Assembly (NCBI GenBank): GCA_030726915.1 | Contig: JANRCR010000041.1 | Location: 4,262-68,261, forward strand | Origin: Candidatus Nanopelagicales bacterium | GTDB lineage: Bacteria > Actinomycetota > Actinomycetes > S36-B12 | Direction: 5' to 3' | DNA length: 64,000 bases | Shown here: piece by piece, positions 46,472 through 64,000 of the stretch | Numbering within the stretch: the first letter of the stretch is position 1 | How the letters are laid out: every line of letters starts with the position of its first letter | Notes under the pieces: generated by a model | Told to the model about the DNA's origin: nothing | Seen by the model: only the letters and a program-made list of their open reading frames with translations | Databases searched by the model: none | Translations under genes and position numbers: made by a program

Positions 46472-46600
46472 GTCGCCTCCCTGGTGACCAGGTAGGCAGA
46501 CTAGGGGAGCGGAGGGCTCAACACATGAGTGAGGCCGCGCTGTACGGCCATCTGGGCCCGCCCTCGCCGAGGCAGGGGCGCTCCAGGACTTCCCTTGGAC

Positions 46601-46789
46601 CTAGCCGCAGCCACAACCGCACCCGCCACCTCTGCGGACATACGGGTCGTCCTGGGCTACACCGGCGGGCCTTGTCTGCCGCGAACCACATCGTGCGCAG
46701 GTCCAGGATGTCGGCATACGTGCGCCGGACATCACCAGTGCGGGGAATGTGTGTTCGCATTCCCCGCACTGGATCAGATATACCGGCAA
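46601..46789 (-). CDS. FmdB-family zinc-ribbon protein with C-terminal Gly/Cys tail
   Basis: TTG start lies 4 nt after the upstream stop. (M)PVYLIQCGECEHTF...WTCARCGS...RRGGGCGCGCG has the CxxC...CxxC ribbon typical of FmdB-like proteins. Confidence 0.65.
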   Translation of the reverse strand: MPVYLIQCGECEHTFPALVMSGARMPTSWTCARCGSRQTRPAGVAQDDPYVRRGGGCGCGCG

Positions 46790-46793
46790 ATGA

Positions 46794-47900
46794 CTAGCCG
46801 AGGCGCTTGCGAGCCATTTCGGTGCCTGCGGCCAGGGCGTGCAACTTATCAATAGCGATGTAGCGCTGAAGGAGAATGAGTCCACAGTCAGTGGTCACTC
46901 CGAGACGCTCCGGCGGGATGAACTCGGCCAGACGCATGATCCGATCACACACTTCTTCTGCGGTCTCGGTAATGGTCGACTTCACATCGATCACTCCGGC
47001 CCAGAAATTGACGTTGTCCGGAAGCGGGTTGCTCTTAATGATGTCCAAGCCCGACAGATCATCGCTTCGACGTCCGCAATTCTCGAGATTGAGTACGTCG
47101 ATGTTGGCCTCATACGACTTCGGGATGACCGACGCGGTCGCTGAGGGAGCTTCGCCCTTGCGCTGAGTGAGGTCAAAGATCTCGCCCGCATCAGCGGTCT
47201 CATCCGGGTAGTAGGCAGGGGTTCCACCCCAGTTGCCCCAGCACACATGGACGATGATCTGGGCGTTCTGGACCCCCTGGACGGCCCGATTGAATGCGTC
47301 AATCGCCCACTCCTCGTAGAAGTACGGCCAGGTGAACTCATCCAACTGAATGAAGTCGATGCCGAGGGCATCAACTTCAAGGATGTCCTCATTGATCGCT
47401 GCCGCCATCGCCATCGCCCGATCGCGGGGGTCCTCGTAGTAGAGGTCGTTGGTGCACTGGGCAAGCACCTGCACGCCGGTGTACTGGATCTTGGTGGGCT
47501 TATTGGTCGCGCGCTTGAGCGCCTTCGCCTGCTCCACCATGATGCTGCCCCGACGCTTGAGCTCCTGCGTTAAGGTGCCTGCGTGCAGCCGGCTGTAGAT
47601 CGGGAAGCCAAGGTAGCCACCCTTCAAGTCGTAGCCTAGGCGACGCATGTAGTAGTAGACGGCTGCGTCCGCGTAGTTGTCGCCGTGAAGCCGGCCGTCC
47701 GAGATGATGTCTAGCCCGGCGATCTCCTGATCCTTGGCGATAGCAGCGGTCGCGTCCTCGAATGCCTCGCGAACGAAAGCATCCGGGGGCTCCTGGTCCC
47801 CGTGCCAGTCGCGGGCTGGACCCGCGTCCCACCAGCGTGGGTTGGGGTAATTGCCGACCATCGAGGTCGGGATGAGGATTTCCTTGTCTCCGACGCGCAT
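46794..47900 (-). CDS. etnE: Epoxyalkane:coenzyme M transferase-like enzyme (MetE-C / cobalamin-independent methionine synthase fold, Zn)
   Basis: 368 aa. MetE-type zinc ligands in context IIVHVCWGN (His-x-Cys) and GVTTDCGL (Cys). It sits in an operon with hydroxyalkyl-CoM dehydrogenase-like SDRs, next to a CoM biosynthesis operon and a 2-KPCC-like gene. Family fold is confident; the EaCoMT function is inferred from context. Confidence 0.72.
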   Translation of the reverse strand: MRVGDKEILIPTSMVGNYPNPRWWDAGPARDWHGDQEPPDAFVREAFEDATAAIAKDQEIAGLDIISDGRLHGDNYADAAVYYYMRRLGYDLKGGYLGFPIYSRLHAGTLTQELKRRGSIMVEQAKALKRATNKPTKIQYTGVQVLAQCTNDLYYEDPRDRAMAMAAAINEDILEVDALGIDFIQLDEFTWPYFYEEWAIDAFNRAVQGVQNAQIIVHVCWGNWGGTPAYYPDETADAGEIFDLTQRKGEAPSATASVIPKSYEANIDVLNLENCGRRSDDLSGLDIIKSNPLPDNVNFWAGVIDVKSTITETAEEVCDRIMRLAEFIPPERLGVTTDCGLILLQRYIAIDKLHALAAGTEMARKRLG

Positions 47901-48110
47901 CTGGTGCCTTCCCTTGATTGGGCGACCGTGGGTCGCACTTATGGGCCCTTTCGATCCCCGTTCCTACTGCGATAAACGTCCGCACCTGCGGGTACTCGCA
48001 CGCTAGCCCCGGGGGAGATCACCGACTACGTATGGTGGGGACGAAGTGCGGCGCGTATCCCTGTCCTGGCCGGGCGAACTTTCAGCGATTCCAGGACCGC
48101 AGCCCTTCCG

Positions 48111-50204
48111 CTAGGACGTCCACGTCGCTCGAGCGTCAACAGCGACCACCCCGTGTCCTCCCACGATGACGGGATTGAGGTCGAGTTCAATGAGGTTCGG
48201 GTGTGCCATCAGAAGGTCACCGACCGCGCAGATAAGCGGCGCGACATCCCTCGCCTCAACAGGCGATTCGCCCCGGACCCCGGCGAGAAGCCCGGCCGCT
48301 CGAGAGCGCTCAACGAGGGCGACGGCTGCCGCTTCATCCAGGGGAGCTGGAGCAAAGCACACCTCCCCGATCGATTCAACGAAGACTCCGCCGAGCCCAA
48401 GAGCCACGACGGGCCCAAAAGTCGGCTCGCGGAGTCCTCCGATGACCAACTCGACACCCGTGACCTGCCGTTGGATCGCCACAAGCGCACCGTCCACAAG
48501 CGCGAGCAGATCAGTCGCGGCCTCCGCGACAGCATCGATCGAAGACAGGGACACGCGTACACCGCCGACATCGGTCTTGTGTGACAGGTCCTTATGATCC
48601 ACCTTGGCCACAACCGGGAAGCCAAGGGACAGGGCCGCCTCTTCCGCCTCTGGCACAGTCGCACAGAACCGCGTCTCCACAAAAGGAATACGGTGCTCGG
48701 CAAGGAGTGCCAGCAGCCCCTGTCCACCCTGCGCCGAGGTCGCCTCCCCTGCTTTGCCGCCTCCGGTCGACCTAGCCACACGGTCCGGCTCGGGACGAGG
48801 TGGGCCCGCGGCGCCGCGAGCACCGAGGACGCCCGCGTAGCGGACTGCATGCCCCACGGCTCGCGCTGTGCGCTCAGGCCACTCAAGACACGGGATGCCC
48901 GCTTCCTGCAGGAGTGCCGCCACGGGCCAGGCTGACCTCCGCGCCACCCAACAGCAGTAGACGGGCACACGCACACCATCTGCTCTCAGGCGGTGTACTG
49001 CGGCGATGATGGCCCGGGCAACGTCAGCGTTCTCCGCCGATCGATGCAGCAGCACAGGGATCACGACGTCGACCTCACCGGAGCGCGCCACTTCATCAAT
49101 CACGGCGGGATACATTTCTACGAATCGTGTCCAGGCCGGTGTCACATCGACAGGGTTAGCCGAACTGGCATAGGTGGGCAGGAGCGACTCAAGTCGTGCC
49201 CGTAAACCGGGAGAGAACGGGGGCACCACGATGTCCTCTACTGAGAGTAGGTCGGCCAGCTCAGTGCCGGTACCTCCAGAGTTGGTAATGATGGCTGCGC
49301 GTGCGCCGCGCGGCACAGGCTGCAAGGCGAGCGCCTTTGCTGCGTCGAGCATCTCCAGTCCCGACCGCGCGACTGTGATGCCAACGGCAGTCATCACGTC
49401 ATTCCATGCGCGACGCTCCGCGGCCAGCGCACCGGTGTGTGACGCCGCAGCGCGAGCACCGGCCTCCGAACGACCTACCGCCGCCACGATCAATGGCTTT
49501 GCAGGGGTGGTGCGCCGTGCCACGTCGAGCAGGAGTTCGCCGTCAGCAATCGACTCAGCAAAAAGACAGATCACCCGCGTGCGATCGTCGAGGCGGAGGT
49601 AGTCGATGACCTCGGAATCATCTACGTCGCACCGGTTTCCCGAGGAGTAGGCGACGGCGAAGCCAACCCCTTCGTCGTCCGACATGGCGTTGAGGGCCAT
49701 CGCGTAGGACCCAGATTGGGTGATGATGCTGATGCCGCCACCCCCACGCGCAGCCCCGGTGGAGAGAGAGGCATTGAGCGGGAGGTCGCAGTTCTGCACC
49801 CCCAAACAGTTGGGGCCGACAACAAGGAGGTCCGCCTCTCGCGCAGCGTCGGCAATCTGGGTCTGGAGCCTTTGCCCCTCAGGGCCGGTCTCGGCAAATC
49901 CACCGCTCACGATGACGCACGCTCGGACGCCTACGGCGACGGCGTCATCAATCACTCCGGGCACCTTCGCCGCCGGCACAGCGATCACCGCGAGATCGAT
50001 CGGACCGGGCACGTCCCGCAGTGTGGGGTAGGCCGTCACGCCGTTGATCTCGGTCGCCGACCGGCTCACAGGCACACTCTCGCCCGGGAACGACTCAAGG
50101 TTGCGCCAGAGCACCCAACCCGGCGATCCCTCCGTGTTGGAGGCGCCTACGACCGCCACTCGCTGGGGGTCGAGAATCGCCCACAGCGGACGGGACGCCC
50201 GCAT
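48111..50204 (-). CDS. ADP-forming acyl/acetyl-CoA synthetase (fused CoA-binding + ATP-grasp)
   Basis: 697 aa. RVAVVGASNTEGSPG CoA-binding start and a C-terminal ATP-grasp domain. Start overlaps the upstream stop (TGATG). Confidence 0.85.
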   Translation of the reverse strand: MRASRPLWAILDPQRVAVVGASNTEGSPGWVLWRNLESFPGESVPVSRSATEINGVTAYPTLRDVPGPIDLAVIAVPAAKVPGVIDDAVAVGVRACVIVSGGFAETGPEGQRLQTQIADAAREADLLVVGPNCLGVQNCDLPLNASLSTGAARGGGGISIITQSGSYAMALNAMSDDEGVGFAVAYSSGNRCDVDDSEVIDYLRLDDRTRVICLFAESIADGELLLDVARRTTPAKPLIVAAVGRSEAGARAAASHTGALAAERRAWNDVMTAVGITVARSGLEMLDAAKALALQPVPRGARAAIITNSGGTGTELADLLSVEDIVVPPFSPGLRARLESLLPTYASSANPVDVTPAWTRFVEMYPAVIDEVARSGEVDVVIPVLLHRSAENADVARAIIAAVHRLRADGVRVPVYCCWVARRSAWPVAALLQEAGIPCLEWPERTARAVGHAVRYAGVLGARGAAGPPRPEPDRVARSTGGGKAGEATSAQGGQGLLALLAEHRIPFVETRFCATVPEAEEAALSLGFPVVAKVDHKDLSHKTDVGGVRVSLSSIDAVAEAATDLLALVDGALVAIQRQVTGVELVIGGLREPTFGPVVALGLGGVFVESIGEVCFAPAPLDEAAAVALVERSRAAGLLAGVRGESPVEARDVAPLICAVGDLLMAHPNLIELDLNPVIVGGHGVVAVDARATWTS

Positions 50205-51019
50205 CAGTGGAGTGCCACCTCGAAGGTGCGCTGCAACTCGCCGGGGTCGAACTCCGATCGGCGCACACCCAGCGGGTCAATCGCGCGCACGGCAGCGAGT
50301 TCAGCAGGGCTGGGCGGCTCGACAGTTCCCAGGTCCGATGCCACCTCGAATTCGAAGCCGGTTGAGCTGCGTACGTCGTCCTCCGTCACATCAGGCCACA
50401 TCTCACGCAGGCGAGCAATGCCTGAGCCGTCATAATCGAAGATTCCCAATTCCGTGACCAGCCACTGCGGGCCGCCGCCCGAGTATCCGAGAGCCTTGCG
50501 ATCACCGGCCGGGGTGACGTGGCCAATATCGGTGATGAAGTCGCACGAAGACACCAGGGTCCGTCCTGAGCGGTGACGAGTAGTCCACAGGGTGAGTTGA
50601 CCGATCGTCGCTGAGATGTTGCAACCGCCGCCACCTCCGCCCAATTTGACCTTCGGTCGATCCAGCGGCCCGACAGCTGTGACATTGGTGTTGCCGTATC
50701 CATCGATCTGACCACCAGACAGGAACATACGATCCACATCCCCTCGGGACGCTGCATCAAAGAACTCTTCAAATCTCATGCTGTAGGCAGCGCCCTGCTT
50801 GAGACTGTTGTCGTTGCTTGTCGGGGGGATAAAGGGAGGATCCGGGTTGATCGCGTACATCGCACCCTCGATCAAGAGCATGTCGGGAGCGTGCGTTCGC
50901 CGCGCAACGTGCATCGCCACCTGCGCGCAGGGGCTGCCGAACCCATGGAAGACAACCTCCCGGTCACGGATCGTGCGAGCCAAGGCCACGACGAACCACT
51001 CATCAATGGTGTACGTCAT
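50204..51019 (-). CDS. Family I CoA-transferase, subunit B
   Basis: Start is MTYTIDEW (ATG 51019, ATGA overlap with subunit A). Resembles glutaconate/3-oxoacid CoA-transferase beta subunits. Confidence 0.8.
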   Translation of the reverse strand: MTYTIDEWFVVALARTIRDREVVFHGFGSPCAQVAMHVARRTHAPDMLLIEGAMYAINPDPPFIPPTSNDNSLKQGAAYSMRFEEFFDAASRGDVDRMFLSGGQIDGYGNTNVTAVGPLDRPKVKLGGGGGGCNISATIGQLTLWTTRHRSGRTLVSSCDFITDIGHVTPAGDRKALGYSGGGPQWLVTELGIFDYDGSGIARLREMWPDVTEDDVRSSTGFEFEVASDLGTVEPPSPAELAAVRAIDPLGVRRSEFDPGELQRTFEVALH

Positions 51020-51924
51020 GCGAAAAGCCCCTTCCACGCATCGACTGATTCACTCCAGGTAGTGAGGCGCTCAAGTTCTGCAGAGCCCTGCCGATCTCGA
51101 TAGCCCGCCTCGTCGGTGCTGCGCACCCACTCGTCCAGATAGGACTCAAGGGATTCCTGCGTCCCAGCAGCTCGGATGTAGGCACCCGTGGCCGAGCGGT
51201 CATAGGCATAGTGCGGGTAACTCGATGCCGGGTGAGCACCAAATGGCACTTCGGCAACGCCCCTCACCAAGTGGGCCGGGATGGTGATTCCGCGCTCGAC
51301 CAACTCCTCGGTCGCCACGATCTTGTCTACCGTAGCGACAACCGATCGCGCGGCACTCGCGAAGTGTTCATCGAGTACGTACGGCTGCTCCATGTAGAGG
51401 TTGCCCCGGGTGTCCCCGAGCGGCGCGTGCAGTAGCGCGACGTCCGGGCGCAGCGGTGGAACCACGACGAGCACCTCCCCCGTGAAGGGGCAGGTCATCT
51501 CGGCGTACTCGGGGTGGAGGCGCCGCATGTCCGTGCCCTTGATACCCCTAACTGGCAGGAAGGGGACCCCCATCTCCGCAGCACGCAACTGCGTCAGGAT
51601 GGTGACGCAGCAACTCTCCTTTACCTGGATCGTGCCACTCTCCGCGGCCCTTCTGTAGGCAGGCGCGAGCCCGAAGTCCTGCTCAAAGCCCACGTAACTC
51701 TCCTCGCAGACAGTTATTGCACCTGCCGCTACGAGCATGTCGACGTCCAGGCTGTGCGCCGAGCCGACCACGTGCAGGTTCCTGCGACCCTGACGAATCA
51801 TCTCGCGTATCAGAGCCATAGGCAGGCGCGCGGAGAGGCCACCACCTAGGGCGACGACGTCGCCATCAGCGACCATCCCAGCCGCCGTGGAGAGATCGAC
51901 TCGCTTATCGGGATCCAGAAACAT
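51016..51924 (-). CDS. Family I CoA-transferase, subunit A
   Basis: 302 aa. DGDVVALGG... N-terminus typical of CoA-transferase alpha subunits. Confidence 0.8.
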   Translation of the reverse strand: MFLDPDKRVDLSTAAGMVADGDVVALGGGLSARLPMALIREMIRQGRRNLHVVGSAHSLDVDMLVAAGAITVCEESYVGFEQDFGLAPAYRRAAESGTIQVKESCCVTILTQLRAAEMGVPFLPVRGIKGTDMRRLHPEYAEMTCPFTGEVLVVVPPLRPDVALLHAPLGDTRGNLYMEQPYVLDEHFASAARSVVATVDKIVATEELVERGITIPAHLVRGVAEVPFGAHPASSYPHYAYDRSATGAYIRAAGTQESLESYLDEWVRSTDEAGYRDRQGSAELERLTTWSESVDAWKGLFA

Positions 51925-51954
51925 GTTCCTCCTCGCTCAGGGCCGACATCGGCG

Positions 51955-52734
51955 CTAGATCGTCGTCATCCCGCCGTCAATGCTGAGCACCGATCCCGTG
52001 ACGAAGGCAGCCTCATCACTCGAGAGATAGAGCGCCGCCTTTGCTATGTCCACCACATCGCCAAGTCGACCAATCGGGTACTTCGCGATCGTTATCGCAA
52101 GACCCTTCTGCAGGTCGCCCCCACCGCGGGCGGTGAGCATCGGCTCCATGAGAGGCGTGTAGACGGTCCCCGGAGCGATCGCGTTTACCCGGATCCCACG
52201 GGGGGCAAGGTCAACAGACATCGACCGCGTAAGGCTCGCAACCGCACCCTTGGCAGCGCAATACGCCGCGAAGTTCGGGATACCCACGAGCGCCGCCACA
52301 GAGGCCTGATTGATGATGGATCCCTTGCTCGCCTGCATCATCGACGGAACGACTGCTCGCGAGCAGAGGTACGTGCCCTTCACGTTGATGTCAAAGCAGC
52401 GGTCCCAGTCGTCTTCCTCAGCCACGTCGACGGCGCCCGTGCTCCCAATCCCAGCATTGTTGTACAGCACAGAGATGTCGCCGAACTCCGCGATGACCGC
52501 CGTGACTGCAGCGCGAACCTGGGCATCAACAGTCACATCAGTCGTCAGTGCCATAGCTCGCTGACCGGCCGCACGAATGCCGTCACTCACCTCGGCCGCG
52601 GCATCACCGTTGACATCGAGCACCGCTACGGCTGCTCCCTCCCGCGCGAAAAGTTCCGCCGAAGCACGTCCGATTCCCGAACCCGCGCCCGTGATCACGG
52701 CCACCTTGCCCTCTAGCCTTCCCGGCATCATCAT
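51955..52734 (-). CDS. SDR dehydrogenase; candidate second hydroxyalkyl-CoM dehydrogenase
   Basis: 259 aa. TGAGSGIGRA, NNAG and YCAAK catalytic motif. Functional label comes from operon context only. Confidence 0.6.
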   Translation of the reverse strand: MMMPGRLEGKVAVITGAGSGIGRASAELFAREGAAVAVLDVNGDAAAEVSDGIRAAGQRAMALTTDVTVDAQVRAAVTAVIAEFGDISVLYNNAGIGSTGAVDVAEEDDWDRCFDINVKGTYLCSRAVVPSMMQASKGSIINQASVAALVGIPNFAAYCAAKGAVASLTRSMSVDLAPRGIRVNAIAPGTVYTPLMEPMLTARGGGDLQKGLAITIAKYPIGRLGDVVDIAKAALYLSSDEAAFVTGSVLSIDGGMTTI

Positions 52735-52789
52735 TCCTTTCGCTCGTTGTCAGAAACTTCATCTTCTTGAGTTTCGATCGGTCACACAA

Positions 52790-53533
52790 TCACCACGATG
52801 ACCACCCACCGTCGATCACGATCGCCGAGCCGTTGGCGTAGGCCATGCGCCCTGAGGCAAGCAGTGCGACGGTGTCCGCGACGTCCTCCGGTTGAGCCAC
52901 ACGTCCGATCGGGACCATCGCCTCGACCTTGGCGCGCAACTCGGGCTGGTCGAGGCGCCACTGCGTCATTGGGGTCTCGACCATGCCCGGGCAGATCGCA
53001 TTCGATCGGATTCCCAGGGGGCCATAGTCGACCGCCACCGAGCGGGCGAACATCAGAGCAGCGCCCTTTGAGGTCGTGTACGCGCAGCGCCCGGGAAAGG
53101 CAATAAGGCCCGCCACCGAGGCAATAGTGATGATCTGGCCACTGCCCGCGGCAATCATCGAGGGCAGCAGGGACCTCGTGCACAGGAAGGGGCCCCTTAC
53201 GTTGACAGCAATAACGCGGTCGAACTCGTCGATGGGCGTTTCTCCCGCGCTCGTCGCCTGCTGCGATCCCGTAATGCCGGCATTGTTCACAAGGACGTCG
53301 ACATGTCCCAACCTGTTGAGGATGCGGCCCATGACGTCCTGGACATCGTCGGGATCGGTGACGTCCAAGGCAAAGTGGTGCGGCGACAGAGATCGCACAG
53401 ACTCGACGTCCAGATCCGTTGCCACGACCTGCATCCCCTCGGAGATAAGTCGTCGAACGCTTGCGCTGCCGATACCACCGGCCGCGCCGGTTACGACGAC
53501 GACAGGTGACTGATCCTCACTGGTCACTGTCAA
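52790..53533 (-). CDS. xecD: SDR dehydrogenase resembling R-2-hydroxypropyl-CoM dehydrogenase
   Basis: 247 aa. TGAAGGIGSA, NNAGI, YTTSKGA, and the C-terminal stretch CPGMVETPMTQWRLDQPELRAKV. That stretch closely matches the substrate-binding region of Xanthobacter R-HPCDH as I remember it; needs alignment to confirm. Confidence 0.65.
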   Translation of the reverse strand: MTVTSEDQSPVVVVTGAAGGIGSASVRRLISEGMQVVATDLDVESVRSLSPHHFALDVTDPDDVQDVMGRILNRLGHVDVLVNNAGITGSQQATSAGETPIDEFDRVIAVNVRGPFLCTRSLLPSMIAAGSGQIITIASVAGLIAFPGRCAYTTSKGAALMFARSVAVDYGPLGIRSNAICPGMVETPMTQWRLDQPELRAKVEAMVPIGRVAQPEDVADTVALLASGRMAYANGSAIVIDGGWSSW

Positions 53534-54855
53534 CCCCTTCCCCGGGCCAACACAGCAGCCTGCGCCGCCTGGATGAGTGGGTCGTAGACCGGTGAGTACG
53601 GCGGAGCATAAGCAAGGTCTAGCTCCGCGATGTCGTCAACAGTCATACCTACCTGAAGGGCAGCCGCCACCACATTGATGCGTTGAGCTACCCCGTCCCT
53701 ACCTACCAGTTGGGCACCGATCACACGGCCGTCCGGCTTGTGAACCAGGCGCACGATGATCGGCTCGGCTCCCGGGTAGTACTTAGCGCGGGACTTTGCC
53801 GTCACCTGAGTCGCCTCCGCGCGCCATCCGCGCGCGCGCGCCTCCTCAAGCGTGACGCCCGTGTGCGCGACGGTGAGATCGAAGACCTTGACAACCGCGG
53901 TGCCGACGACGCCCGCAAAGGTGGCTTCGCCACCTCCGGCGACGGTGCCTGCGACCCGCCCGGTCTTATTGGCTGCGGGGCCGAGTGGCACGAAGGCGGG
54001 TTCCCCGAGGACTCGATGATGCACCGCGATGCAGTCACCAGCGGCATAGACGTCCTCGGCGGAGGTGCGCATCTGCTCGTCAACGATGAGGGCTCCGTTG
54101 GGGAGCGCTGCCAAGTCGGACACAAGACCCGTCGAGGGACTTACTCCGACCGCGAGCACGACCACGTCCGTCGGGATAGTGCCACCGTCGTACTCCACGT
54201 CAATGTGGGAGTCATGGGAATGCAACGCCCTGAGTTCGGCATCCAAAAGCAGCGTGCAGTGACGCTCGGTTTCGGTTTGGATGATAGCGGCCACATCGGG
54301 GTCGACAGTCGTCATCACGCGGGATAGCCGATCCATGACCGTGACGTCGAGACCACATGCATGCAGGGCCTCAGCCATTTCCAGTCCGACGTACCCGGCC
54401 CCCACGATGACCCCTCGGCGTGCGGTTCCGAGTCGTGCACGGAGCTCAATGGCATCCTCGAGTCGCCGAACAGTCATGACACGGGGATCGTCAACGCCGG
54501 GGATCGATGGCACGATTGGCTGTGCACCAGCCGCGTACACCAGGGCGTCGTAACCCCACTCGGCTCCATCGCTATCGACCACGAGGTGCGCTTCCAGGTC
54601 GACCGAAGTGATCACGCTGTCGAGCCGCAGGTCAATGCGTCTGCGCTCGCGAAACTCCGCCGCGGGATAGGCGATAAGGCTCTCGGGGTCAGAGATCACG
54701 CCACCGAGGTAGTAGGGGAGCCCACATACCCCGTAGGACGGAAAGGGGCCTTGCTCCCACACGGTCACCTCGGCGGTGCTATCCGCGCGGCGCGCCGCTG
54801 AAGCCGCCGACATCCCGGCGGCCCCGCCTCCGATCACCACGATTCGCCGGGGCAC
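53530..54855 (-). CDS. Single-cysteine FAD/NAD(P)H disulfide oxidoreductase (CoA-disulfide reductase / NADH oxidase family)
   Basis: 441 aa, GTG start after GGAGGTG. VVIGGGAAGMSAA FAD fold, single redox Cys context SYGVCGLPYY, second Rossmann VIVGAGYVGLEMAE. 4-nt overlap with the downstream SDR. Confidence 0.8.
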   Translation of the reverse strand: MPRRIVVIGGGAAGMSAASAARRADSTAEVTVWEQGPFPSYGVCGLPYYLGGVISDPESLIAYPAAEFRERRRIDLRLDSVITSVDLEAHLVVDSDGAEWGYDALVYAAGAQPIVPSIPGVDDPRVMTVRRLEDAIELRARLGTARRGVIVGAGYVGLEMAEALHACGLDVTVMDRLSRVMTTVDPDVAAIIQTETERHCTLLLDAELRALHSHDSHIDVEYDGGTIPTDVVVLAVGVSPSTGLVSDLAALPNGALIVDEQMRTSAEDVYAAGDCIAVHHRVLGEPAFVPLGPAANKTGRVAGTVAGGGEATFAGVVGTAVVKVFDLTVAHTGVTLEEARARGWRAEATQVTAKSRAKYYPGAEPIIVRLVHKPDGRVIGAQLVGRDGVAQRINVVAAALQVGMTVDDIAELDLAYAPPYSPVYDPLIQAAQAAVLARGRG

Positions 54856-55087
54856 GCCACCTCCAAAGCCTTGAACGACCGCCCATCAGGGCGATCGTCT
54901 TGACCCTCCCAGGGGGAAGGTGGGAACTCTATGACCGCTTGGGGCTAAGTTCCACGGTTTCTTCGGCCCTTCAGGACGGCACAATCGGTTGTCAGCTCGC
55001 CTAATATTCTCGACACACCGCATGTTGTCGCCTCATAAAGGGGACAACCGTGTACCCAAAGCCAAAGAAGGGGCGAACGACGTGCAG

Positions 55088-55879: not shown

Positions 55880-55891
55880 GAGGATGTGCGC

Positions 55892-56836: not shown

Positions 56837-58191
56837 GCGCCCACCTGAGCGACTCCGCGATCTACGGGCATCTGTGGGGTACTGACGAGACTCGCGCGAT
56901 GCTGTGCGACGAGGGGCGCCTGCGCTCGTGGCTCGACCTGCTCGCCTGCCTCGCTGAGGCACAGGCCGAGGTGGGCCTGGTACCCGCGGATGCAGCCCGG
57001 TCAATAACGGCCTCGGTGCACGACTGGATCCCCGACATCGCGGAGGTCGGACGTCTCACCCGAGAGACCGGACACTCAACACTTGGCTTGATCCGCTGCA
57101 TGCAGGAACGTTTGCCTGAGCACGCCCGAGAGTGGGTCTACTACGGAGCCACGGTGCAAGATCTGAGCGACACCTGGGCCGTCCTCGTCATGAGGCGCAT
57201 GACCAATATCGTCCTGCGGGACCTCCGCGTAGCCCGGAGCGCAGCGGCCGACCTCGCGCGGGTGCATCGAGCGACGATCATGTGCGGGCGCACGCACGGT
57301 CAGCCGGGTCTACCCATCACTTTCGGATTCAAGGCTGCGGTATGGGCGGATGAGATCGACCGCCATATCGGACGGATCGAGCACTCCCGAGAGGCCAGGG
57401 AGGTCATCCAACTCGGCGGTGGGCTTGGTTCCATGGAGTTCTGGGGTGAGGCTGCCGAGCCGATGGCAAGGGCCTTCGCCCGACGTCTAGACCTCGGCGT
57501 GCCCGTCATACCGTGGCTCACGTCCCGCGATCGCTTCGCCGAGTTCGTCACCCAGATGGCGATGATCGCCGCGACAATCGCCAAGATCGGCGACGAGGTC
57601 TTCGAACTCCAAAGAGCCGAGATCGGGGAGCTCCGCGAGCCGCTCTCCCCCGGCACAGTTGGAAGTATCACTATGCCGCACAAGCGCAATCCTGAGTGGT
57701 CCGAGCACGTGAGTTCGCTCGCGCGGCTCGTTCGAGTCAATGCCGATCTCGCCATCGAGGGGATGATCCACGGGCACGAGCGAGACGGCCGGGCTTGGAA
57801 GACAGAGTGGGTCGTTCTGCAGGAGACATGTCACTTCACCGCGACGAGCACAATGGCGGTGACGCGCATTCTTGACGGACTGGAGGTCAACGTTGCGCGC
57901 ATGCAGGCGAATCTCGACGCCCAACGTGGTTACGTACTCAGTGAGCCAGTCATGCGAGCGCTATCTGATCGAATGGGCAAGCACACAGCTCACCAGGTCG
58001 TCTACGAGGCCACGCTCTCGGGGGGTGAGCGCGGAGTAGACATGCGCACGGCCCTACGCGACGACCCGCGCCTTGCGGATATCCCCGATGCCGAACTCGA
58101 TGCCCTTCTCGATCCATCGCGAGCCCTGGGCTCCATATCCCGTTTCGTAGATGACGTCCTAGCTCGACTAGGAGACTCCACGGATGCCTAA
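56833..58191 (+). CDS. xcbC: Aspartase/fumarase-superfamily lyase (adenylosuccinate-lyase-like), XcbC-like
   Basis: 452 aa, ATGA overlap with the upstream gene. Superfamily signature loop GSITMPHKRNP. Confidence 0.7.
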   Translation: MSAHLSDSAIYGHLWGTDETRAMLCDEGRLRSWLDLLACLAEAQAEVGLVPADAARSITASVHDWIPDIAEVGRLTRETGHSTLGLIRCMQERLPEHAREWVYYGATVQDLSDTWAVLVMRRMTNIVLRDLRVARSAAADLARVHRATIMCGRTHGQPGLPITFGFKAAVWADEIDRHIGRIEHSREAREVIQLGGGLGSMEFWGEAAEPMARAFARRLDLGVPVIPWLTSRDRFAEFVTQMAMIAATIAKIGDEVFELQRAEIGELREPLSPGTVGSITMPHKRNPEWSEHVSSLARLVRVNADLAIEGMIHGHERDGRAWKTEWVVLQETCHFTATSTMAVTRILDGLEVNVARMQANLDAQRGYVLSEPVMRALSDRMGKHTAHQVVYEATLSGGERGVDMRTALRDDPRLADIPDAELDALLDPSRALGSISRFVDDVLARLGDSTDA

Positions 58192-59173
58192 GCCCCCGTG
58201 GGTCACACGCCTGGGGACAGTTCCACGGGAGCCCCTCGCCTCGCTCCCGAGCCCGCTACAACCAGCCCCGCGACTCTCTGACGCCCTTGGCATCGAAATA
58301 TGGGTCAAGCGCGATGACCTACTCGGTCTAGGTCTTGGCGGTAACAAGGCACGTCCGCTCGAGTTCCTCATGGGCGATGCGCTTGTCAAGAACAGCGACG
58401 TTATTGTCACGGGGTCGGGCCCGCAGTCAAACTGGTCCATGCTCGCTGCCCTGGCGGCACGCCGGTGCGGACTTGACTCAATCGTCTGCTTCTACGGTGA
58501 CCGTCCACGGGAGTCCCGCGGCAATCTCCTCCTCCACGGACTTATCGGCACTGACGTTCGCTGGACCAGTGAGTCGACGCGAGAGTCCGTCGACACGATG
58601 ATCGGCTCGGTGGCCGAGAGCCTCCGACAAGACGGCAAGCACCCCTACGTCATACCCCGTGGGGGGGCGACGCCCCGAGGCAGCCTGGGTTACCTCGTGG
58701 GAGCTGAGGAGATCTCGAGCCAGTGCAGGGACGCCGGTCTCCACAACGCGACCGTCTGGCTTGCTACCGGCTCTTGCGGCACCCAGGCCGGGCTCGTCAC
58801 AGGCGTGGCCGCCGGCCTTCTGTCCGCCGTCGTGGGCGTGACGGTCAGCAGACCCGTCGAGGAGTGCCGATCTCGCGTGCTTGAGATCGCGCAAGCTGCT
58901 GCAGTACTCGCGGGCACGACGCCAGCGACAGCAAACATCGTCACGGTGCTCGATGGCTACATCGGCGGGGGGTACGGCGTACCTACCGCCGAAGGTGCAG
59001 CCGCCGCCGCCCTGGTTCTGAGCACCGAGGGGATCTTCCTCGACCCACCATTCTGCGCGAAGGGAATGGCCAGCCTCGTCGATGCTGCCGCTCAGGGAAG
59101 CATCGCGGGCCCTGTGATCTTCCTCGTGTCCGGCGGTGCGCCCACTCTCTTCGTGGAGGATGGGGCGTTGTGA
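58184..59173 (+). CDS. xcbD: PLP fold-type II enzyme of the ACC-deaminase/D-cysteine-desulfhydrase family, XcbD-like
   Basis: 329 aa. PLP-lysine motif GGNKARPLEF. It lacks the AcdS-diagnostic YEGKS and AHLGG contexts, having FCAKG and LVSGG instead. Confidence 0.7.
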   Translation: MPKPPWVTRLGTVPREPLASLPSPLQPAPRLSDALGIEIWVKRDDLLGLGLGGNKARPLEFLMGDALVKNSDVIVTGSGPQSNWSMLAALAARRCGLDSIVCFYGDRPRESRGNLLLHGLIGTDVRWTSESTRESVDTMIGSVAESLRQDGKHPYVIPRGGATPRGSLGYLVGAEEISSQCRDAGLHNATVWLATGSCGTQAGLVTGVAAGLLSAVVGVTVSRPVEECRSRVLEIAQAAAVLAGTTPATANIVTVLDGYIGGGYGVPTAEGAAAAALVLSTEGIFLDPPFCAKGMASLVDAAAQGSIAGPVIFLVSGGAPTLFVEDGAL

Positions 59174-60684
59174 CCATTCAGCCTCCCACCGGGTACCTCG
59201 GCACCGACGGCCGGATCAGCTCAGGTCCAGCACCCGAGCTCGTCGCAGCCGGGTACGCACTGGAAATCTCTGACGCGCCGGCACTCCATGACGGGCTTCT
59301 CATTGCTGATCTCGCTCATGTCATCGGACTTCTCGACAGCGGCCTCATCGACACCGACATCGCGGGCCGACTTCTGCGCGCGCTGCTAGACATGGGGGAT
59401 ATCCCCGCGGAAGACTTCCCCTACGACGTGACCCTCGGGGATGCCTACAACAGCCGGGAGCGCGAACTCGAGCGCCGGATAGGCACTATGTCCGGCGTCA
59501 TCCACCTCGGACGCACCCGACGCGAAGCGGGGCGAATCGCGTTCCGGCTTGCATTGCGGGAGCGACTGGAAGCGTTGGCGCTTGCTGTCGCGCGGCTGAC
59601 ACGGACGCTGGGTGACCGCGCTGAGGATTGGTCCGACACGGTCTGGGCGGATGTCACCTACTTGCAGCTCGCTCAGCCATCCACCTTCGGTCACTACCTG
59701 GCCGCCTTTGCGGAGGAATCCGCCCGTCACCTGCCCCGGTTGCGTGCCGCCCACGGCTGGGCTGACGTGTCCCCTGCTGGATCCGGCGGCGTCGCGGGCA
59801 CGCGCATGGGCATGGATAGACAAGGCCTTGCGCAGATCCTCGGATTCACAACTGTCGGCCGCAACACCCGCGACACCATGTGGACCATCGATGGACTCCT
59901 CGACGCGATGGCGGCAGCAACTCAGACAGCCATTACGTGCAGCCGCCTGGCAGAGGATCTGCAGATCTTCGCGAGTGCTGGCTTCGGGATCGTCACCGTC
60001 GATGCGTCCCTATGCCGAGCATCAGTCCTCATGCCGCAGAAGCGCAACCCTTACGCTCTTTCCGTCATTCGAGCTGGGGCAAGCACGCTTATTGGTCGAC
60101 TCACCGGGACAGCCTCGACGGCACGCACACCATCCGCAGCCACCGACAACTGGCTGCATTCCTACGGCGAGGTACTTTCGTCTCTGGAATTGTCCACCCG
60201 GCTCGTCGACCTGACCGATGCCGTGGTGCGCACGCTGTCGATCGACTCCGAGCGGATGCTCGTGAGCGCTGCAGACCAGCAAGCCATCGCCACAGATCTC
60301 GCGGACGAACTCGTCCTCACCACCGGCATGGACTACCGCAGTGCTTACCGTGTCGTCGGGCGCGCTGTCGCGGCCGCGCTGGAATCCGGCTCCATCATCA
60401 GCCCGGAGTCACTGGACGCAGCATGCCGAGAGGTCACAGGAGACGCACTCCCCAACTCATCGGAAGCGATCAACTGGGCCTCTCTACGTGACCCCCGGCA
60501 ACTCGTGGCTACGCGTACGGAAACCGGCGGGTGCGGTCGCGACAGCCTTGCTGCCGAACTGGCCTCGCTGCGCGACATCGTCGACGAGCAGCAGGGGTGG
60601 TTTGAGGCACGGCGCGCCCACGAGCAAGAGTGCCTCGGTGCGCTGCGCACACGCGCAAACAATCTAGCTACCCCCTCGATCTAG
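59170..60684 (+). CDS. xcbE: Aspartase/fumarase-superfamily lyase (argininosuccinate-lyase-like), XcbE-like
   Basis: 504 aa, GTGA overlap with the upstream gene. Signature loop ASVLMPQKRNP. Confidence 0.7.
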   Translation: MTIQPPTGYLGTDGRISSGPAPELVAAGYALEISDAPALHDGLLIADLAHVIGLLDSGLIDTDIAGRLLRALLDMGDIPAEDFPYDVTLGDAYNSRERELERRIGTMSGVIHLGRTRREAGRIAFRLALRERLEALALAVARLTRTLGDRAEDWSDTVWADVTYLQLAQPSTFGHYLAAFAEESARHLPRLRAAHGWADVSPAGSGGVAGTRMGMDRQGLAQILGFTTVGRNTRDTMWTIDGLLDAMAAATQTAITCSRLAEDLQIFASAGFGIVTVDASLCRASVLMPQKRNPYALSVIRAGASTLIGRLTGTASTARTPSAATDNWLHSYGEVLSSLELSTRLVDLTDAVVRTLSIDSERMLVSAADQQAIATDLADELVLTTGMDYRSAYRVVGRAVAAALESGSIISPESLDAACREVTGDALPNSSEAINWASLRDPRQLVATRTETGGCGRDSLAAELASLRDIVDEQQGWFEARRAHEQECLGALRTRANNLATPSI

Positions 60685-62261
60685 AGGGACTCCAATTGCA
60701 TCGCTCCCGCGCGCAGGCGTGAGAGTTGAATGAAGTGCGAGGGATTGAGAAAGAGTTCGTTCATTTCAGCAAGTTGGTCAATCGTCACGCCCACCTTGTG
60801 GATGAGGAAATCGAGGTACTGGAAGCCGTCCTTCGCCCCATATCCCACATGGTGGGCCCCCACCAGGCGGCGACTCTTGGAGTCAAAAACGGCCTTCTGG
60901 AAGCCCGACAGTTCCGGATGGGTGAAGGCGAAGAGCATCGTGCCGTCGGAGCACGGCAGCGGGATGTCACCGTAAGGAACGCCCGGCGGGGGCATCTGGA
61001 TCACAATGACATCGCCGTACTCTTCGCGTGCCTCACGTTCGGATAATCCGACCCAGGTCACCTCGTACGTCGAGTGGAGGAAGTCGGGGTACTCGCTGAA
61101 GTCAAAGGAGTAGTCCTCACCCATGATGTTGCGGGCTGCGGTCATCCCGCACTTGCGTGCCTTAAACATCTCCATCGGGGCACCAATGAGATCTCCCACA
61201 GCGTAGACGCCCGGGACTGATGTGCGCATGTGGTCGTCGACGATCACGGCCCCTCGGTCATCCACCGAGACTCCCAGCGCTTTCACGAAGGGGTCGGAGT
61301 TAGGGCGTTCGCCCGTGCCCACGAAAACCATGTCGCAGGGGATATCCCGGACGGATCCATCAGCCATGCGCACGCGTACGCCTGTCGCTCGCTCATCACC
61401 AAGGATCTCCAGGGTCTCCGTGCCGTCGAAGATTTGTATGCCACGTCGACGCATTCCGTCCACAACGTACTCACGTAGATCATCATCGATGTGGTGGAGG
61501 CCCGAGCCCTGCATCAGTGGGCTTCTCGCGAGGATCGTTGTCTGGCAGCCCGCAGCCTGGAAGAAGGATCCGTACTCGATCGCCACCTTCGACCCACCGA
61601 TAATGACGCAGGAGCGCGGGTTGTAATCAAGGTCCTCGACCAGCGTTGCATAGTCGAAGACACCAGCCTTATCGATCCCCGGCACGTCAGGGAACACCGT
61701 GGCCGATCCGGTTGCCAGGACGAGGTTCTTGGCCGTAAAGATCTCCCCCTCGACTTCGACGGTATGCGCATCGATGACACTCGCGGTGGCATTGAGGATG
61801 TACTCCATTCCGAGCTGCTCCTTGCTTTGCCAATTCATGAAGGAGTGCGCGGAATTCCGGCCCGAGACGAAGAGTTGCACCATGTCAAGGACGGATGCCT
61901 TGGACTCGTCGAACTCCGGGTACCAGAAGCGTCCCGATAACGTGCGAGCGAGATCGAGTTCGCGTGCCGCCTCCGAGAAGAGGTGGTGAGGGACGCAGGC
62001 CTGGTGGGGACAAGACCCCCCGAGGAAGGGCCATTGGTCGATGGTCAACTGTCGACCGCCGCGGGCACGCATGAAGGCAGACCCGAAGCGACCTCCAGCC
62101 CCTCCGCCGACGAAGATGGCGTCGAACTCGCGGTCATCGCTTCGGTCGAGGTTGTAGATCGCACCCTGGCGCCTACCATCCTCGAACTCATCGATGAGCG
62201 TCCGCCACTCGGCGTTTGTAGGGTGCTCGTCGCGAACGTCCATATAGGTCTCCGAGTCCAT
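60681..62261 (-). CDS. xecC: NADPH:2-ketopropyl-CoM oxidoreductase/carboxylase (2-KPCC)-like disulfide oxidoreductase
   Basis: Start is ATG 62261 after AGGAGG (526 aa). FAD fold FVGGGAGGRFGS and redox disulfide GGSCPHQACVPHH. The usual C-terminal His-Glu dyad region (HPxxxE) is replaced by FLNPSHF, i.e. Phe...His at i/i+5, the substitution described for 2-KPCC. Confidence 0.78.
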   Translation of the reverse strand: MDSETYMDVRDEHPTNAEWRTLIDEFEDGRRQGAIYNLDRSDDREFDAIFVGGGAGGRFGSAFMRARGGRQLTIDQWPFLGGSCPHQACVPHHLFSEAARELDLARTLSGRFWYPEFDESKASVLDMVQLFVSGRNSAHSFMNWQSKEQLGMEYILNATASVIDAHTVEVEGEIFTAKNLVLATGSATVFPDVPGIDKAGVFDYATLVEDLDYNPRSCVIIGGSKVAIEYGSFFQAAGCQTTILARSPLMQGSGLHHIDDDLREYVVDGMRRRGIQIFDGTETLEILGDERATGVRVRMADGSVRDIPCDMVFVGTGERPNSDPFVKALGVSVDDRGAVIVDDHMRTSVPGVYAVGDLIGAPMEMFKARKCGMTAARNIMGEDYSFDFSEYPDFLHSTYEVTWVGLSEREAREEYGDVIVIQMPPPGVPYGDIPLPCSDGTMLFAFTHPELSGFQKAVFDSKSRRLVGAHHVGYGAKDGFQYLDFLIHKVGVTIDQLAEMNELFLNPSHFIQLSRLRAGAMQLESL

Positions 62262-62283
62262 GCCCACTCCTCCTGTACTGACA

Positions 62284-62311
62284 CTCTCCCGCGACGGATG
62301 ACGCGGGAGAG
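62284..62311. promoter_or_regulatory. Perfect 10-bp inverted repeat in the divergent 2-KPCC / aldehyde dehydrogenase intergenic region
   Basis: ctctcccgcg-acggatga-cgcgggagag lies 23 nt upstream of the 2-KPCC start codon. It could be an operator or a 5'-UTR hairpin. Confidence 0.4.
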
Positions 62312-62443
62312 GGGCCGCAACTGAGGCATGACTGTGCCGCATTGCCTGCGACCGGGGCCATGACCCAGCGGGACAGTGTTCTCCGATTCCTTTGTCCATC
62401 CGGGCCGATCCGAACTTCCCTGAATTCGTGCAGGCTTGGTCCC

Positions 62444-63871
62444 ATGACTAAGCCCGCCGCAGACTCCCGTAATCAATCCGAGGTCGCAGCCGACGTCGCC
62501 GAGATCGTCGCGCGTGCGCGACGGGCCCAGGAAGCGATCACCGACTGGGACCAGCAGCGCGTCGACGAGCTCGTGACAGCTGTCGGATGGTCGATCGTGC
62601 GCAAAGACCATGCCGAAACGCTGGCACAACTTGCGGTTGATGAGGGTGGGTTCGGCACTTATGCGGACAAGCTCACGAAGATCCAGCGGCGCGTCAACGG
62701 CCTGCTCGCTGACATGCACGGCATGCAGACGGTGGGCGTCATCGAGGAAGACCCTGCGCGAGGACTGGTCAAGATCGCCAAGCCTGTAGGTGTCCTCGCC
62801 GCTCTCATCCCGACCACCGGCCCCGATGCCACCCCTCCCATGAAGGCCCTCATGGCCCTCAAAGGACGCAACGCAATCGTGGTCGCCCCCCACCCGCGCA
62901 CATGCAAAACGTCAGAGCTCGCGGTGGAGTACATGCGTGAAGCCTGCGCCCAGGTGGGTGCGCCGCAGGACCTGATCATCAGCCTGACCAGTCCCAGCAT
63001 CGACAAGACTCGTGAACTCATGCGGCAGGCTGACGTCGTCGTGGCCACGGGTGGGGCTGCCATGGTCAGAGCCGCATACAGCAGTGGGACTCCAGCGTAC
63101 GGCGTTGGCGTAGGCAACGCCGTACACGTCGTCGACGAGACCGCGGACCTTGACGATGCTGCCGCGATGATCGCCGCAGCGAAGACCTTTGACCTGGCGA
63201 CGAGCTGTCTCGCTGACAACTCCGTGATCATCGCCGATGCAATCTACGCCGACCTTATGGAGAGGTTGGCGACCGCGGGCGGCTACCTTTGCAATGAAGA
63301 GGAGAAAGCCCGCCTCCAGGCCGCGATGTGGCCAGACGGGGGAGAGATTCCCGCACTTGACGTCATCGCGAAGTCCGCTGCGCACATCGCGTCACTCGCT
63401 GGCATACAGATCAGCCCGGGTACGACATTTCTGATGGTGGAGGAGGATGGCACCGGCCCCGACCATCCGTTCTCCGGCGAGAAGCTCTCCGTCGTCCTGG
63501 CCGTCTATCGTTATGGAGGAGACATCGCCGACGCGGTCGGCACCATTAACGACATCACTGCATACCAGGGCCTCGGCCACACCTGCGGTATCCACACACG
63601 TCTCAACGAGCATGTTGATGCCCTTGCCTTCGGCACGCGCACCGCCCGCGTCATGGTCAACCAAAGTCTCAATGAGGGTGCGGGTAGTGCGAGGAACGGC
63701 CTACCCTTCACGCTGAGCTTGTCCTGCGGGACCTGGGGCGGCAATATCACTACGGAGAACGTCAACGCCCGCCACTTCATCAATGTCACGTGGGTATCTC
63801 GGCCCATCGCACCCCGACCGGTCTCCGAGGAGGACCTCTTCTCTGGCCATTGGGCAAAGTACGGCGCTTAG
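62444..63871 (+). CDS. CoA-acylating aldehyde dehydrogenase (EutE/PduP/AdhE-N type)
   Basis: Start is MTKPAAD (ATG 62444). Catalytic Cys context AKTFDLATSCLADNSVII resembles the acylating-ALDH motif FDNG.ICASEQS. Confidence 0.78.
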   Translation: MTKPAADSRNQSEVAADVAEIVARARRAQEAITDWDQQRVDELVTAVGWSIVRKDHAETLAQLAVDEGGFGTYADKLTKIQRRVNGLLADMHGMQTVGVIEEDPARGLVKIAKPVGVLAALIPTTGPDATPPMKALMALKGRNAIVVAPHPRTCKTSELAVEYMREACAQVGAPQDLIISLTSPSIDKTRELMRQADVVVATGGAAMVRAAYSSGTPAYGVGVGNAVHVVDETADLDDAAAMIAAAKTFDLATSCLADNSVIIADAIYADLMERLATAGGYLCNEEEKARLQAAMWPDGGEIPALDVIAKSAAHIASLAGIQISPGTTFLMVEEDGTGPDHPFSGEKLSVVLAVYRYGGDIADAVGTINDITAYQGLGHTCGIHTRLNEHVDALAFGTRTARVMVNQSLNEGAGSARNGLPFTLSLSCGTWGGNITTENVNARHFINVTWVSRPIAPRPVSEEDLFSGHWAKYGA

Positions 63872-64000
63872 CCTGACACGCCCGGCGACAACCTAACAAG
63901 CGCGCAAAAATCGTCCCAATGGGGCGGCTATGTGGCGAAACTGTGTCCTGGTAGGCCTGGTCGATTGTGCCCAGGACCCTTACGCTGACGGCATCGGCCA

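Follow-up and report, generated by a model that had tools for sequence, protein, structure and literature searches.

A 64,000-nucleotide stretch of the Candidatus Nanopelagicales bacterium assembly GCA_030726915.1 (contig JANRCR010000041.1, positions 4,262 to 68,261 of the forward strand; hereafter the window) carries a complete-looking gene set for coenzyme M (CoM) biosynthesis and CoM-dependent epoxide conversion on a chromosome-type contig, as proposed in an earlier reading made without database searches (the sequence-only reading). Rather than being part of a stable housekeeping segment, this cluster is a self-contained, strain-variable island of ~20 kb. Recombination between 72-bp direct repeats, which come from the 5′ end of a crtO-like gene, accounts for the gain and loss of this unit. 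We consider it moderately probable that, as a whole, this strain-variable island is an epoxide scavenging or detoxification module moved by repeat recombination, in an uncultured, probably freshwater actinobacterium. Monooxygenase-free clusters are already known from methanotrophs (PMC11507031) and have been hinted at in Actinobacteria (PMC11197473); new here is the population-level evidence of a recombinase-free 20-kb cassette coming and going at a 72-bp repeat. Contig coordinates beyond the end of the window, marked "extended", were obtained from JANQWR010000050.1 of the metagenome-assembled genome (MAG) GCA_030729765.1, in which the window occupies positions 1093–65092.

Gene content and layout of the cluster

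Gene identities were assigned by scanning six-frame open reading frames (ORFs) with Pfam and NCBIfam and by pairwise BLASTP against proteins of Xanthobacter autotrophicus Py2, Nocardioides JS614 and Mycolicibacterium chubuense NBB4. All 14 genes between 46794 and 63871 were intact. They include every gene class named in the sequence-only reading, at or near the positions proposed there, together with five further genes. On the minus strand, from 54855 down to 46794, the order is a flavoprotein of the CoA-disulfide reductase (CoADR)/NADH oxidase (Nox) family, two short-chain dehydrogenases/reductases (SDRs), CoA-transferase subunits A and B, an ADP-forming acyl-CoA synthetase and a MetE-fold protein, the epoxyalkane:coenzyme M transferase (EaCoMT). 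On the plus strand, from 55022 to 60684, ComA is followed by an XcbA-family protein (DUF7714), XcbD, an XcbE-like enzyme dependent on pyridoxal phosphate (PLP) and an XcbC-like lyase. These two long operons stand back to back across 166 bp, one running from the CoADR-like gene to EaCoMT and the other from ComA to XcbC. The gene for the 2-ketopropyl-CoM oxidoreductase/carboxylase (2-KPCC) homologue, on the minus strand, converges on XcbC, and a SauS-like aldehyde dehydrogenase gene on the plus strand diverges from it. The cluster had been described as two facing transcription units; the long operons were in fact divergent, and only the 2-KPCC gene was convergent.

The EaCoMT gene (46794–47900, minus strand) encodes a protein with the MetE catalytic fold that is 75% identical to Py2 XecA and 45% identical to NBB4 EtnE, with a range of 45–48% across the EtnE proteins of NBB4 and JS614. 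Other plasmid-borne MetE-like genes recovered in a plasmid search were at most 31% identical to it. In the alignment, the zinc-ligand columns His218-x-Cys220 and Cys339 were invariant with XecA and EtnE. Judged by sequence, the transferase is clearly apart from ordinary MetE-like paralogues, to which identity was ~30%; the product of 46794–47900 is thus not an ordinary MetE-C paralogue, the possibility that would have undercut its assignment.

The 2-KPCC homologue (60681–62261, minus strand) shares 54% identity with Py2 XecC and 67% with the JS614 protein. It scored 607 bits against the solved 2-KPCC structure (PDB 1mo9) and 128 bits against the next reductase family. Cys84/Cys89, His139, Met142 and the segment Phe504...His509 were invariant with XecC; the motifs CPHQAC (Cys84/Cys89) and FLNPSH (Phe504/His509) align to Cys82/Cys87 and Phe501/His506 of Py2. 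We take the roles of these residues, including the Phe...His pair in place of a His-Glu dyad, to be those described in the 2-KPCC literature. With this replacement kept, the flavoprotein is, on the alignment, a true 2-KPCC and not a generic disulfide reductase. Both checks, on the transferase and on the flavoprotein, therefore favour the functional assignment of the sequence-only reading.

Two SDRs represent predicted hydroxyalkyl-CoM dehydrogenases. SDR1 (51955–52728, minus strand) is 46% identical to XecE, the S-specific 2-hydroxypropyl-CoM dehydrogenase (S-HPCDH), and 61–65% identical to the JS614 and NBB4 SDRs; SDR2 (52790–53527, minus strand) is 49% identical to XecD (R-HPCDH) and 59% identical to the JS614 SDR that adjoins its 2-KPCC gene. 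The columns of XecD Arg152 and Arg196, presumably the sulfonate-binding arginines, were conserved in SDR2. In SDR1 the Lys column was kept, but Thr occupied the column that we took as Arg211. SDR2 appears to group with the R-specific XecD and SDR1 with the S-specific XecE, the stereospecificity being assigned by lineage.

The CoADR/Nox-family flavoprotein (53530–54855, minus strand) matched TIGR03385 at 405 bits, under the cut-off, and was 50–52% identical to the product of the gene that opens the Petn operon of JS614 and of NBB4. Among solved structures it comes closest to Nox and CoADR, with whose sequences its ...GVCGLPY... motif aligns, and its active site contains a single Cys; the role of the enzyme would be to reduce CoM or CoA disulfide or persulfide. 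CoA-transferase subunits A (51016–51924, minus strand) and B (50204–51019, minus strand) both belong to PF01144. Subunit A gave weak matches to 3-oxoacid CoA-transferase A and was 67% identical to its JS614 orthologue, and subunit B was 73% identical to the orthologues in JS614 and NBB4. The NDP-forming (ADP-forming) acyl-CoA synthetase (48111–50204, minus strand) contains CoA_binding, Succ_CoA_lig and ATP-grasp_5 domains and shares 46% identity with the orthologue on the JS614 etn plasmid.

The CoA-acylating, SauS-like aldehyde dehydrogenase (62444–63871, plus strand) scored 553 bits against NF047625 (cut-off 600) and was 71% identical to the JS614 plasmid orthologue; its exact sequence was recorded in 62 assembly blocks. 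A longer ORF starting at 62342 was rejected, as it had no matching record and gene callers use the start at 62444.

Coenzyme M biosynthesis genes

The five CoM genes match one-to-one the XcbA–E pathway shown biochemically in Py2 (PMC9457059), and their order and identity are as in the JS614 and NBB4 operons. Phosphosulfolactate synthase (ComA/XcbB; 55022–55879, plus strand) passed Pfam PF02679 at 254 bits and was 54% identical to the JS614 and NBB4 proteins and 34% identical to Py2 XcbB. The XcbA-family protein (55892–56836, plus strand) exceeded the NF052538 cut-off of 150 with 406 bits and was 63% identical to the JS614 protein. XcbD, a 3-sulfopropionyl-cysteine synthase of the adenylosuccinate-lyase fold (56833–58191, plus strand), exceeded the NF052536 cut-off of 600 with 651 bits. 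The XcbE-like PLP enzyme (58184–59173, plus strand; NF052537, 302 bits, cut-off 450) was 45% identical to Py2 XcbE and 53% to the JS614 protein, and the XcbC-like enzyme of the argininosuccinate-lyase fold (59170–60684, plus strand; NF052535, 386 bits, cut-off 575) was 39% identical to Py2 XcbC and 54% to the NBB4 and JS614 proteins.

By homology, CoM would be made from phosphoenolpyruvate, sulfite and cysteine by ComA/XcbB, XcbC, XcbD, XcbE and XcbA. The XcbC-like enzyme would eliminate phosphate from phosphosulfolactate. Py2 XcbA is a [2Fe-2S] reductase that makes CoM from sulfoethanethioaldehyde (PMC9457059), and by analogy the XcbA-family protein may have the same function. XcbA homologues were present on only 6 of 72,556 plasmids.

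Regulators and control region

Just past the window, on the same contig and on others, a MEDS protein and a PucR-type regulator lie 3′ of the aldehyde dehydrogenase gene. They are homologues of EtnR2 (MEDS; 43–55% identity) and EtnR1 (PucR/CdaR type; 46%) of NBB4 and JS614. The statement that no regulator was in view was therefore an effect of the window edge. In NBB4, EtnR1 and EtnR2 activate the promoter of the equivalent divergent region on ethylene oxide, not ethylene, and this promoter, Petn, has been mapped experimentally (PMC11197473).

The divergent intergenic region (54856–55021) is the positional counterpart of the NBB4 Petn control region. It measures 166 bp here, 167 bp in NBB4 and 165 bp in JS614, with the same architecture. 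By-eye comparison with NBB4 Petn and JS614 revealed only a CCTAATA(T/A)T-like element in common, too weak to claim. A hairpin with a 15-bp stem (46735–46772, minus strand) begins 22 nt past the EaCoMT stop codon, with a predicted RNA fold of −45.7 kcal/mol over a 94-nt stretch; it is likely the end of the catabolic operon. Scans for consensus promoters and terminators between 46000 and 64000 performed no better than on shuffled sequence.

Comparison with characterized clusters

The best characterized relatives of 13 of the 14 genes, at 46–73% identity, are found in the ethene/vinyl chloride (etn) loci of JS614 plasmid pNOCA01 and NBB4 plasmid pMYCCH.02. With these loci the cluster shares ComA-XcbA-XcbD-XcbE-XcbC divergent, across ~166 bp, from oxidoreductase-SDR-CoA-transferase-CoA-transferase-acyl-CoA synthetase-EaCoMT, as well as the 2-KPCC-like gene, an SDR, the SauS-like dehydrogenase and EtnR2/EtnR1. 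Unlike in JS614 and NBB4, no etnABCD genes follow the transferase, which is of the XecA type. Because the transferase alone is of this proteobacterial type, the cluster is a mosaic. It is also chromosomal, compact (20 kb) and free of insertion sequences (IS), whereas the plasmid loci extend over ~40 kb, with transposases breaking them up. When the whole region was compared with plasmids by megablast, only a single 74% stretch was returned, in the JS614 aldehyde dehydrogenase gene; the cluster therefore does not duplicate a known plasmid locus.

Py2 plasmid pXAUT01 encodes the same route from epoxide through hydroxyalkyl-CoM and ketoalkyl-CoM to carboxylation (XecA, XecC, XecD, XecE) and the same five-enzyme CoM pathway (XcbA–E) (PMC9457059). 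Catalytic residues are conserved between the two, while gene order differs and the xamo monooxygenase adjoins the cluster in Py2. The Py2 core operon is also without CoA-transferase, acyl-CoA synthetase and CoADR-like genes, and the CoM-synthesis proteins encoded here are 34–45% identical to those of Py2.

A further parallel comes from methanotrophs. About 10% of methanotroph genomes contain clusters without a monooxygenase; these are induced by ethylene exposure and have been read as serving epoxyethane detoxification (2024, PMC11507031). In Methylohalobius such a cluster is functional and ethylene-induced (PMC11507031). The cluster of Methylohalobius crimeensis is chromosomal and laterally acquired, and its XecA-type EtnE is 77% identical to the Py2 protein, compared to 75% here. 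Shared with the methanotroph cluster are an SDR, CoA-transferases, the acyl-CoA synthetase, CoM synthesis, a sulfoacetaldehyde-dehydrogenase-like gene, a MEDS regulator and the absence of an alkene monooxygenase (PMC11507031). Methanotrophs, however, have an obvious epoxide source in their own particulate methane monooxygenase (pMMO), and their cluster lies in a 100-kb island with IS genes as well as genes of integrative conjugative elements (ICEs) (PMC11507031). The host here is an actinobacterium without known methane or alkene oxidation, and its 20-kb island is without mobility genes, its gain and loss being visible at the 72-bp repeat.

Source of the epoxide and proposed function

No homologues of XamoA, XamoE or EtnA–D were detected in the window or in the 10 kb beyond it, which bears out the earlier statement that the window encodes no monooxygenase and extends it to 10 kb downstream. 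Since neither the island nor its surroundings contain a monooxygenase, and since the type of sensor answers an epoxide and not an alkene, the module would most likely consume or detoxify epoxides that the island does not make. Homology supports four steps: the synthesis of CoM, its addition to an epoxide, the oxidation of this adduct and the cleavage of the thioether by reduction.

In the proposed scheme, the XecA-type zinc transferase would open a short-chain epoxide with CoM, the two SDRs would oxidise the resulting hydroxyalkyl-CoM, and 2-KPCC would cleave the thioether reductively. A C3 epoxide would give acetoacetate, which the A/B CoA-transferase may then activate. Epoxyethane would be converted to 2-oxoethyl-CoM and further to a CoA thioester by the SauS-like acylating dehydrogenase; the 2-KPCC homologue may cleave this thioester to acetyl-CoA and CoM. 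The CoADR-like flavoprotein would keep the thiol cofactors reduced, and the epoxide itself would switch on expression via EtnR2 and EtnR1. Neighbouring methane, ammonia or alkene oxidisers, or an unlinked oxygenase of the host, could supply the epoxide.

The main rival to this scheme is that the host is a true ethene or propene oxidiser, with the gene for a soluble di-iron or copper membrane monooxygenase at another genomic location and the island serving as the downstream half of a growth pathway. We regard this as unlikely, although it is the alternative that deserves most attention: all characterised strains that grow on alkenes use the same gene set together with a monooxygenase, the partner in Haliea is a pMMO-like enzyme (PMC4036023), and the MAG is fragmented, so that the view is of a single contig. 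It is at odds with the arrangement at the 3′ end of the transferase gene, where JS614-type and NBB4 loci have etnABCD directly after etnE and the present locus has a strong hairpin and unrelated genes. Moreover, tblastn with 10-kb flanks revealed no soluble di-iron monooxygenase (SDIMO) subunits within 10 kb in any of the 30 related species loci described below, and the island moves as a unit without a monooxygenase. We therefore continue with the scavenging or detoxification module as the preferred account.

Island boundaries, empty sites and circular or tandem form

Measured composition set the island apart from its surroundings. Its GC-content was 63.2%, compared to 65.1% in the flank and under that of every equal-sized flank window. 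GC-content at third codon positions (GC3) was 0.733 versus 0.776 (p = 4e-4, 46 kb of flank), and the tetranucleotide distance was 0.142 against a flank maximum of 0.063. The sequence-only reading had seen no compositional break and had placed the cluster on a housekeeping chromosome segment; the measurements contradict the first statement, and the repeats, empty-site alleles and circular or tandem junction described here contradict the second.

The left copy of the 72-bp direct repeat (repA, 46381–46452) lies within codons 7–30 of the crtO-like gene (46001–46471, minus strand). The right copy (repB, extended 66366–66437) is located 19,985 bp from repA, just past the EtnR1 gene, and the two copies are identical at 71 of 72 positions (13923–13994 of our contig L007 versus window 46381–46452). 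The repeat-recombining unit thus extends from 46381 to extended 66365 (19,985 bp).

Two kinds of empty site were observed. In the S allele, contigs L062 and L064 join window position 46452 to position 13923 of contig L002, giving the YcaO side, a single repeat copy and then crtO. The S-allele flank is 99.9% identical to the window over 10,452 bp. Its crtO-like variant differs only in residues 3–7 and matches the N-terminus of the truncated remnant at the right repeat. The S allele is the exact product expected of recombination between the two 72-bp repeats. In the E allele, found via an exact look-up of the crtO-like protein, contigs L049–L051 of the same sampling series are without the cluster and join window position 46581 to L002 15163, 1.2 kb past the second repeat, in a flank that is 97.5% identical. 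Here ~21 kb are absent (46582–64000 and on to ~extended 67605). Repeats or microhomology were sought at the E-allele edges (46581/46582 and extended 67605/67606), and none was found beyond a few G residues.

The reciprocal junction was recovered as well. Contig k141_513703 (ERZ1283808; 20,061 bp) runs from the regulator end through the repeat to the transferase end, and has an exact 76-bp terminal overlap, so that the circle or tandem unit repeats every 19,985 bp. Another study contributed a second contig (k = 127 assembly), which starts at the predicted point and measures 20,112 bp, that is, 19,985 + 127. The S-allele contig L064 and the circular contig come from one assembly, ERZ1283808.

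The 16 genes between the repeats all have metabolic or regulatory roles; no recombinase, integrase, excisionase, relaxase or oriT-type function was found among them. Because the island is without a recombinase of its own, host homologous recombination of the Campbell type is inferred, and the nature of the repeat as a captured gene fragment likewise points to homologous rather than site-specific recombination. In the simplest model, the host's homologous recombination would insert and excise the unit in the Campbell manner, or act by unequal crossing-over, on a segment that may be a crtO 5′-end fragment captured by the element from an E-allele-like lineage. The unit resembles integrative islands with attL/attR in its direct repeats, by which the target gene regains its 5′ end, in an empty site joined at the repeat and in the circular junction. 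It differs from them in having none of the above mobility functions and in its captured gene fragment as the repeat.

That the island is instead fixed, with the circular contigs as assembly artefacts at the 72-bp repeat and the island-free alleles as old polymorphisms, is improbable, and clearly more so than the alkene-oxidiser alternative. Such an explanation would accommodate the missing recombinase gene, the contig-level nature of the support for mobility and the more divergent, 97.5% identical background of the E allele. It is countered by the same 19,985-bp period in two assemblies from different studies and by the S allele, joined precisely at the repeat in a background 99.9% identical over 10.4 kb. 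Furthermore, the 72-bp repeat is shorter than the final k-mers of the assemblers (127 and 141), and an assembled junction should accordingly require genuine spanning sequence.

Several points weigh against the account of the island as a mobile epoxide module. The circular junction is known from assembled contigs alone, in which a free circle and a tandem duplication look alike and a rare assembler artefact is possible. An island gene is split in two related contigs: the CoADR-like gene is divided into 356 + 91 aa in L003/L054 (~7254–8577; MAG GCA_052742055.1), and the XcbA gene is reduced to 114 aa in L048/L057 (~11200–11825; one ERZ19403724 contig). These copies may be assembly errors or island decay in some strains. 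Activity, CoM production and substrate are predicted from the genes, and XcbC, XcbE and ComA, while best matches, are under the strict NCBIfam cut-offs; the corresponding JS614 and NBB4 proteins diverge from Py2 to the same extent. Finally, the monooxygenase search covered the window, 10 kb downstream and 30 related loci, and a dedicated alkene monooxygenase elsewhere in the genome is possible.

The site upstream of crtO was rearranged in a further way. In a related strain with a 96.6% identical flank, the 3′ end of a tRNA gene, and not the YcaO locus, lies in front of the crtO-like gene (L060, 1–200), and the site is therefore a general rearrangement hot spot. Separately, tRNA-Ser(gct) at 44201–44292 was considered as an integrase-linked attachment site and rejected: only ROK, DDAH-like and crtO-like genes lie between, and the island edge is not at the tRNA.

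Distribution of related clusters

Relatives of the transferase at 74–95% identity were found in 30 species-level genomes, mostly MAGs of lake and soil Actinomycetota and Acidimicrobiia, several of them on megabase-size contigs. The isolates among the 30 were Longivirga aurantiaca, two Kineosporia strains and Actinomycetospora sp. NBRC 106375. According to tblastn, most of the 30 related loci carry most of the gene set, in varied orders. In a wider protein collection, at least 367 clusters at 90% identity matched the transferase at E ≤ 1e-120, most of them annotated as methionine synthase II; named sources included Methylococcaceae, Candidatus Methylumidiphilus, Anaerolineae and Thiomonas. With this many transferase-clade clusters and 30 species genomes with close relatives, the statement that CoM use in bacteria is rare is overstated. 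In Actinobacteria without known hydrocarbon oxidation, EtnR homologues have been reported to adjoin alkene and CoM genes (PMC11197473). We found no literature linking EaCoMT to Kineosporia, Longivirga, Actinomycetospora or Acidimicrobiia.

Gene neighbours in the relatives varied. In the nearest other species (L013, 5911–9690; also L011, L014 and L032), a metallo-beta-lactamase + rhodanese protein and a molybdopterin oxidoreductase are encoded between the transferase and the genes for 2-KPCC, aldehyde dehydrogenase, EtnR2 and EtnR1. On the NBB4 plasmid, a molybdopterin oxidoreductase gene adjoins the CoM genes, and JS614 has a phosphoadenosine phosphosulfate (PAPS) reductase gene. These neighbours may supply sulfite or sulfur for CoM synthesis. 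In three loci (L010 ~7702, L015 ~7840 and L018 ~7819), a second MetE-like paralogue, 29–30% identical to the transferase, lies between the XcbE and ComA genes.

Very unlikely, and the weakest of the alternatives, is that the substrate is another electrophile or ketone (halohydrins, haloacetaldehyde, larger natural epoxides, acetone-type ketones) and CoM has a wider role in these Actinomycetota: the mosaic cluster with an XecA-clade transferase among etn-type genes, the SauS-like dehydrogenase and ADP-forming synthetase without a proven role in the Py2 pathway, and the wide occurrence of the clade in habitats without known alkene contamination would suit it, but in the transferase, the R-type dehydrogenase and 2-KPCC the residues of the active site and of sulfonate binding agree with those of the epoxypropane enzymes, and the homologous regulator pair answers ethylene oxide (PMC11197473).

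Genomic surroundings

The cluster is contiguous with ffs (181–276), four tRNA genes, upp, pntB and pntA on a 67.8-kb contig, and the same flanks occur in many assemblies. The cluster is chromosomal, on a chromosome-type contig rather than a large catabolic plasmid. The housekeeping neighbours ffs, upp and pntAB named in the sequence-only reading were recovered; dnaX was not found among the ORFs scanned, and 1303–3171 encodes a Kup potassium transporter. This gene adjoins ffs and tRNA-Ser (181–442). On the EaCoMT side, the hairpin is followed by the crtO-like, DDAH-like and ROK genes. In agreement with the same reading, no integrase or transposase was found in the 64-kb window, nor was an alkene-epoxidising oxygenase.

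Two further loci were variable. At ~39900–39965, many same-species contigs hold three extra genes between an AAT-like gene and an amidase gene, encoding a deaminase-like protein (443 aa) and two PLD-domain proteins (386 and 401 aa); the window is without them. This is a second presence/absence polymorphism, possibly of a defence-type cassette. Past the window end, by 1.9–7.5 kb (L002 14382–19895), at least six paralogous ORFs of 79–100 aa, repeating at 88–92% nucleotide identity, lie around a YcaO gene (660 aa). The number of these small ORFs varies among the island-bearing (O), S and E alleles. The locus looks like one for a ribosomally synthesized and post-translationally modified peptide (RiPP) with several precursor genes.

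Significance

Bacterial CoM has so far been regarded as an oddity found in a few alkene degraders with plasmids. Here, the full pathway was found on chromosomes of uncultured and cultured lake and soil Actinomycetota and Acidimicrobiia, always without a linked monooxygenase. If the module works as proposed, free short-chain epoxides would be a real substrate or stress in lakes and soils. The pathway is also undercounted in databases; most relatives are labelled "methionine synthase II". The occupied site, two kinds of empty site and the circular or tandem form in one population form a natural case, well suited to study, of the spread of a catabolic module that has no mobility genes of its own. 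Cultured carriers (Longivirga aurantiaca, Kineosporia spp. and Actinomycetospora spp.) make the hypothesis directly testable.

A broader proposal is offered tentatively, as one that we hold to be doubtful on present evidence: abundant freshwater Actinomycetota may carry a recombinase-free 20-kb cassette, moving into and out of the chromosome by homologous recombination at a captured 72-bp fragment of its target gene, by which cells without an alkene or methane monooxygenase use or resist epoxides leaked by methane, ammonia and alkene oxidisers. If this is true, CoM would be a common cofactor of lake and soil heterotrophs, and epoxide cross-feeding would be a link in the carbon cycle.

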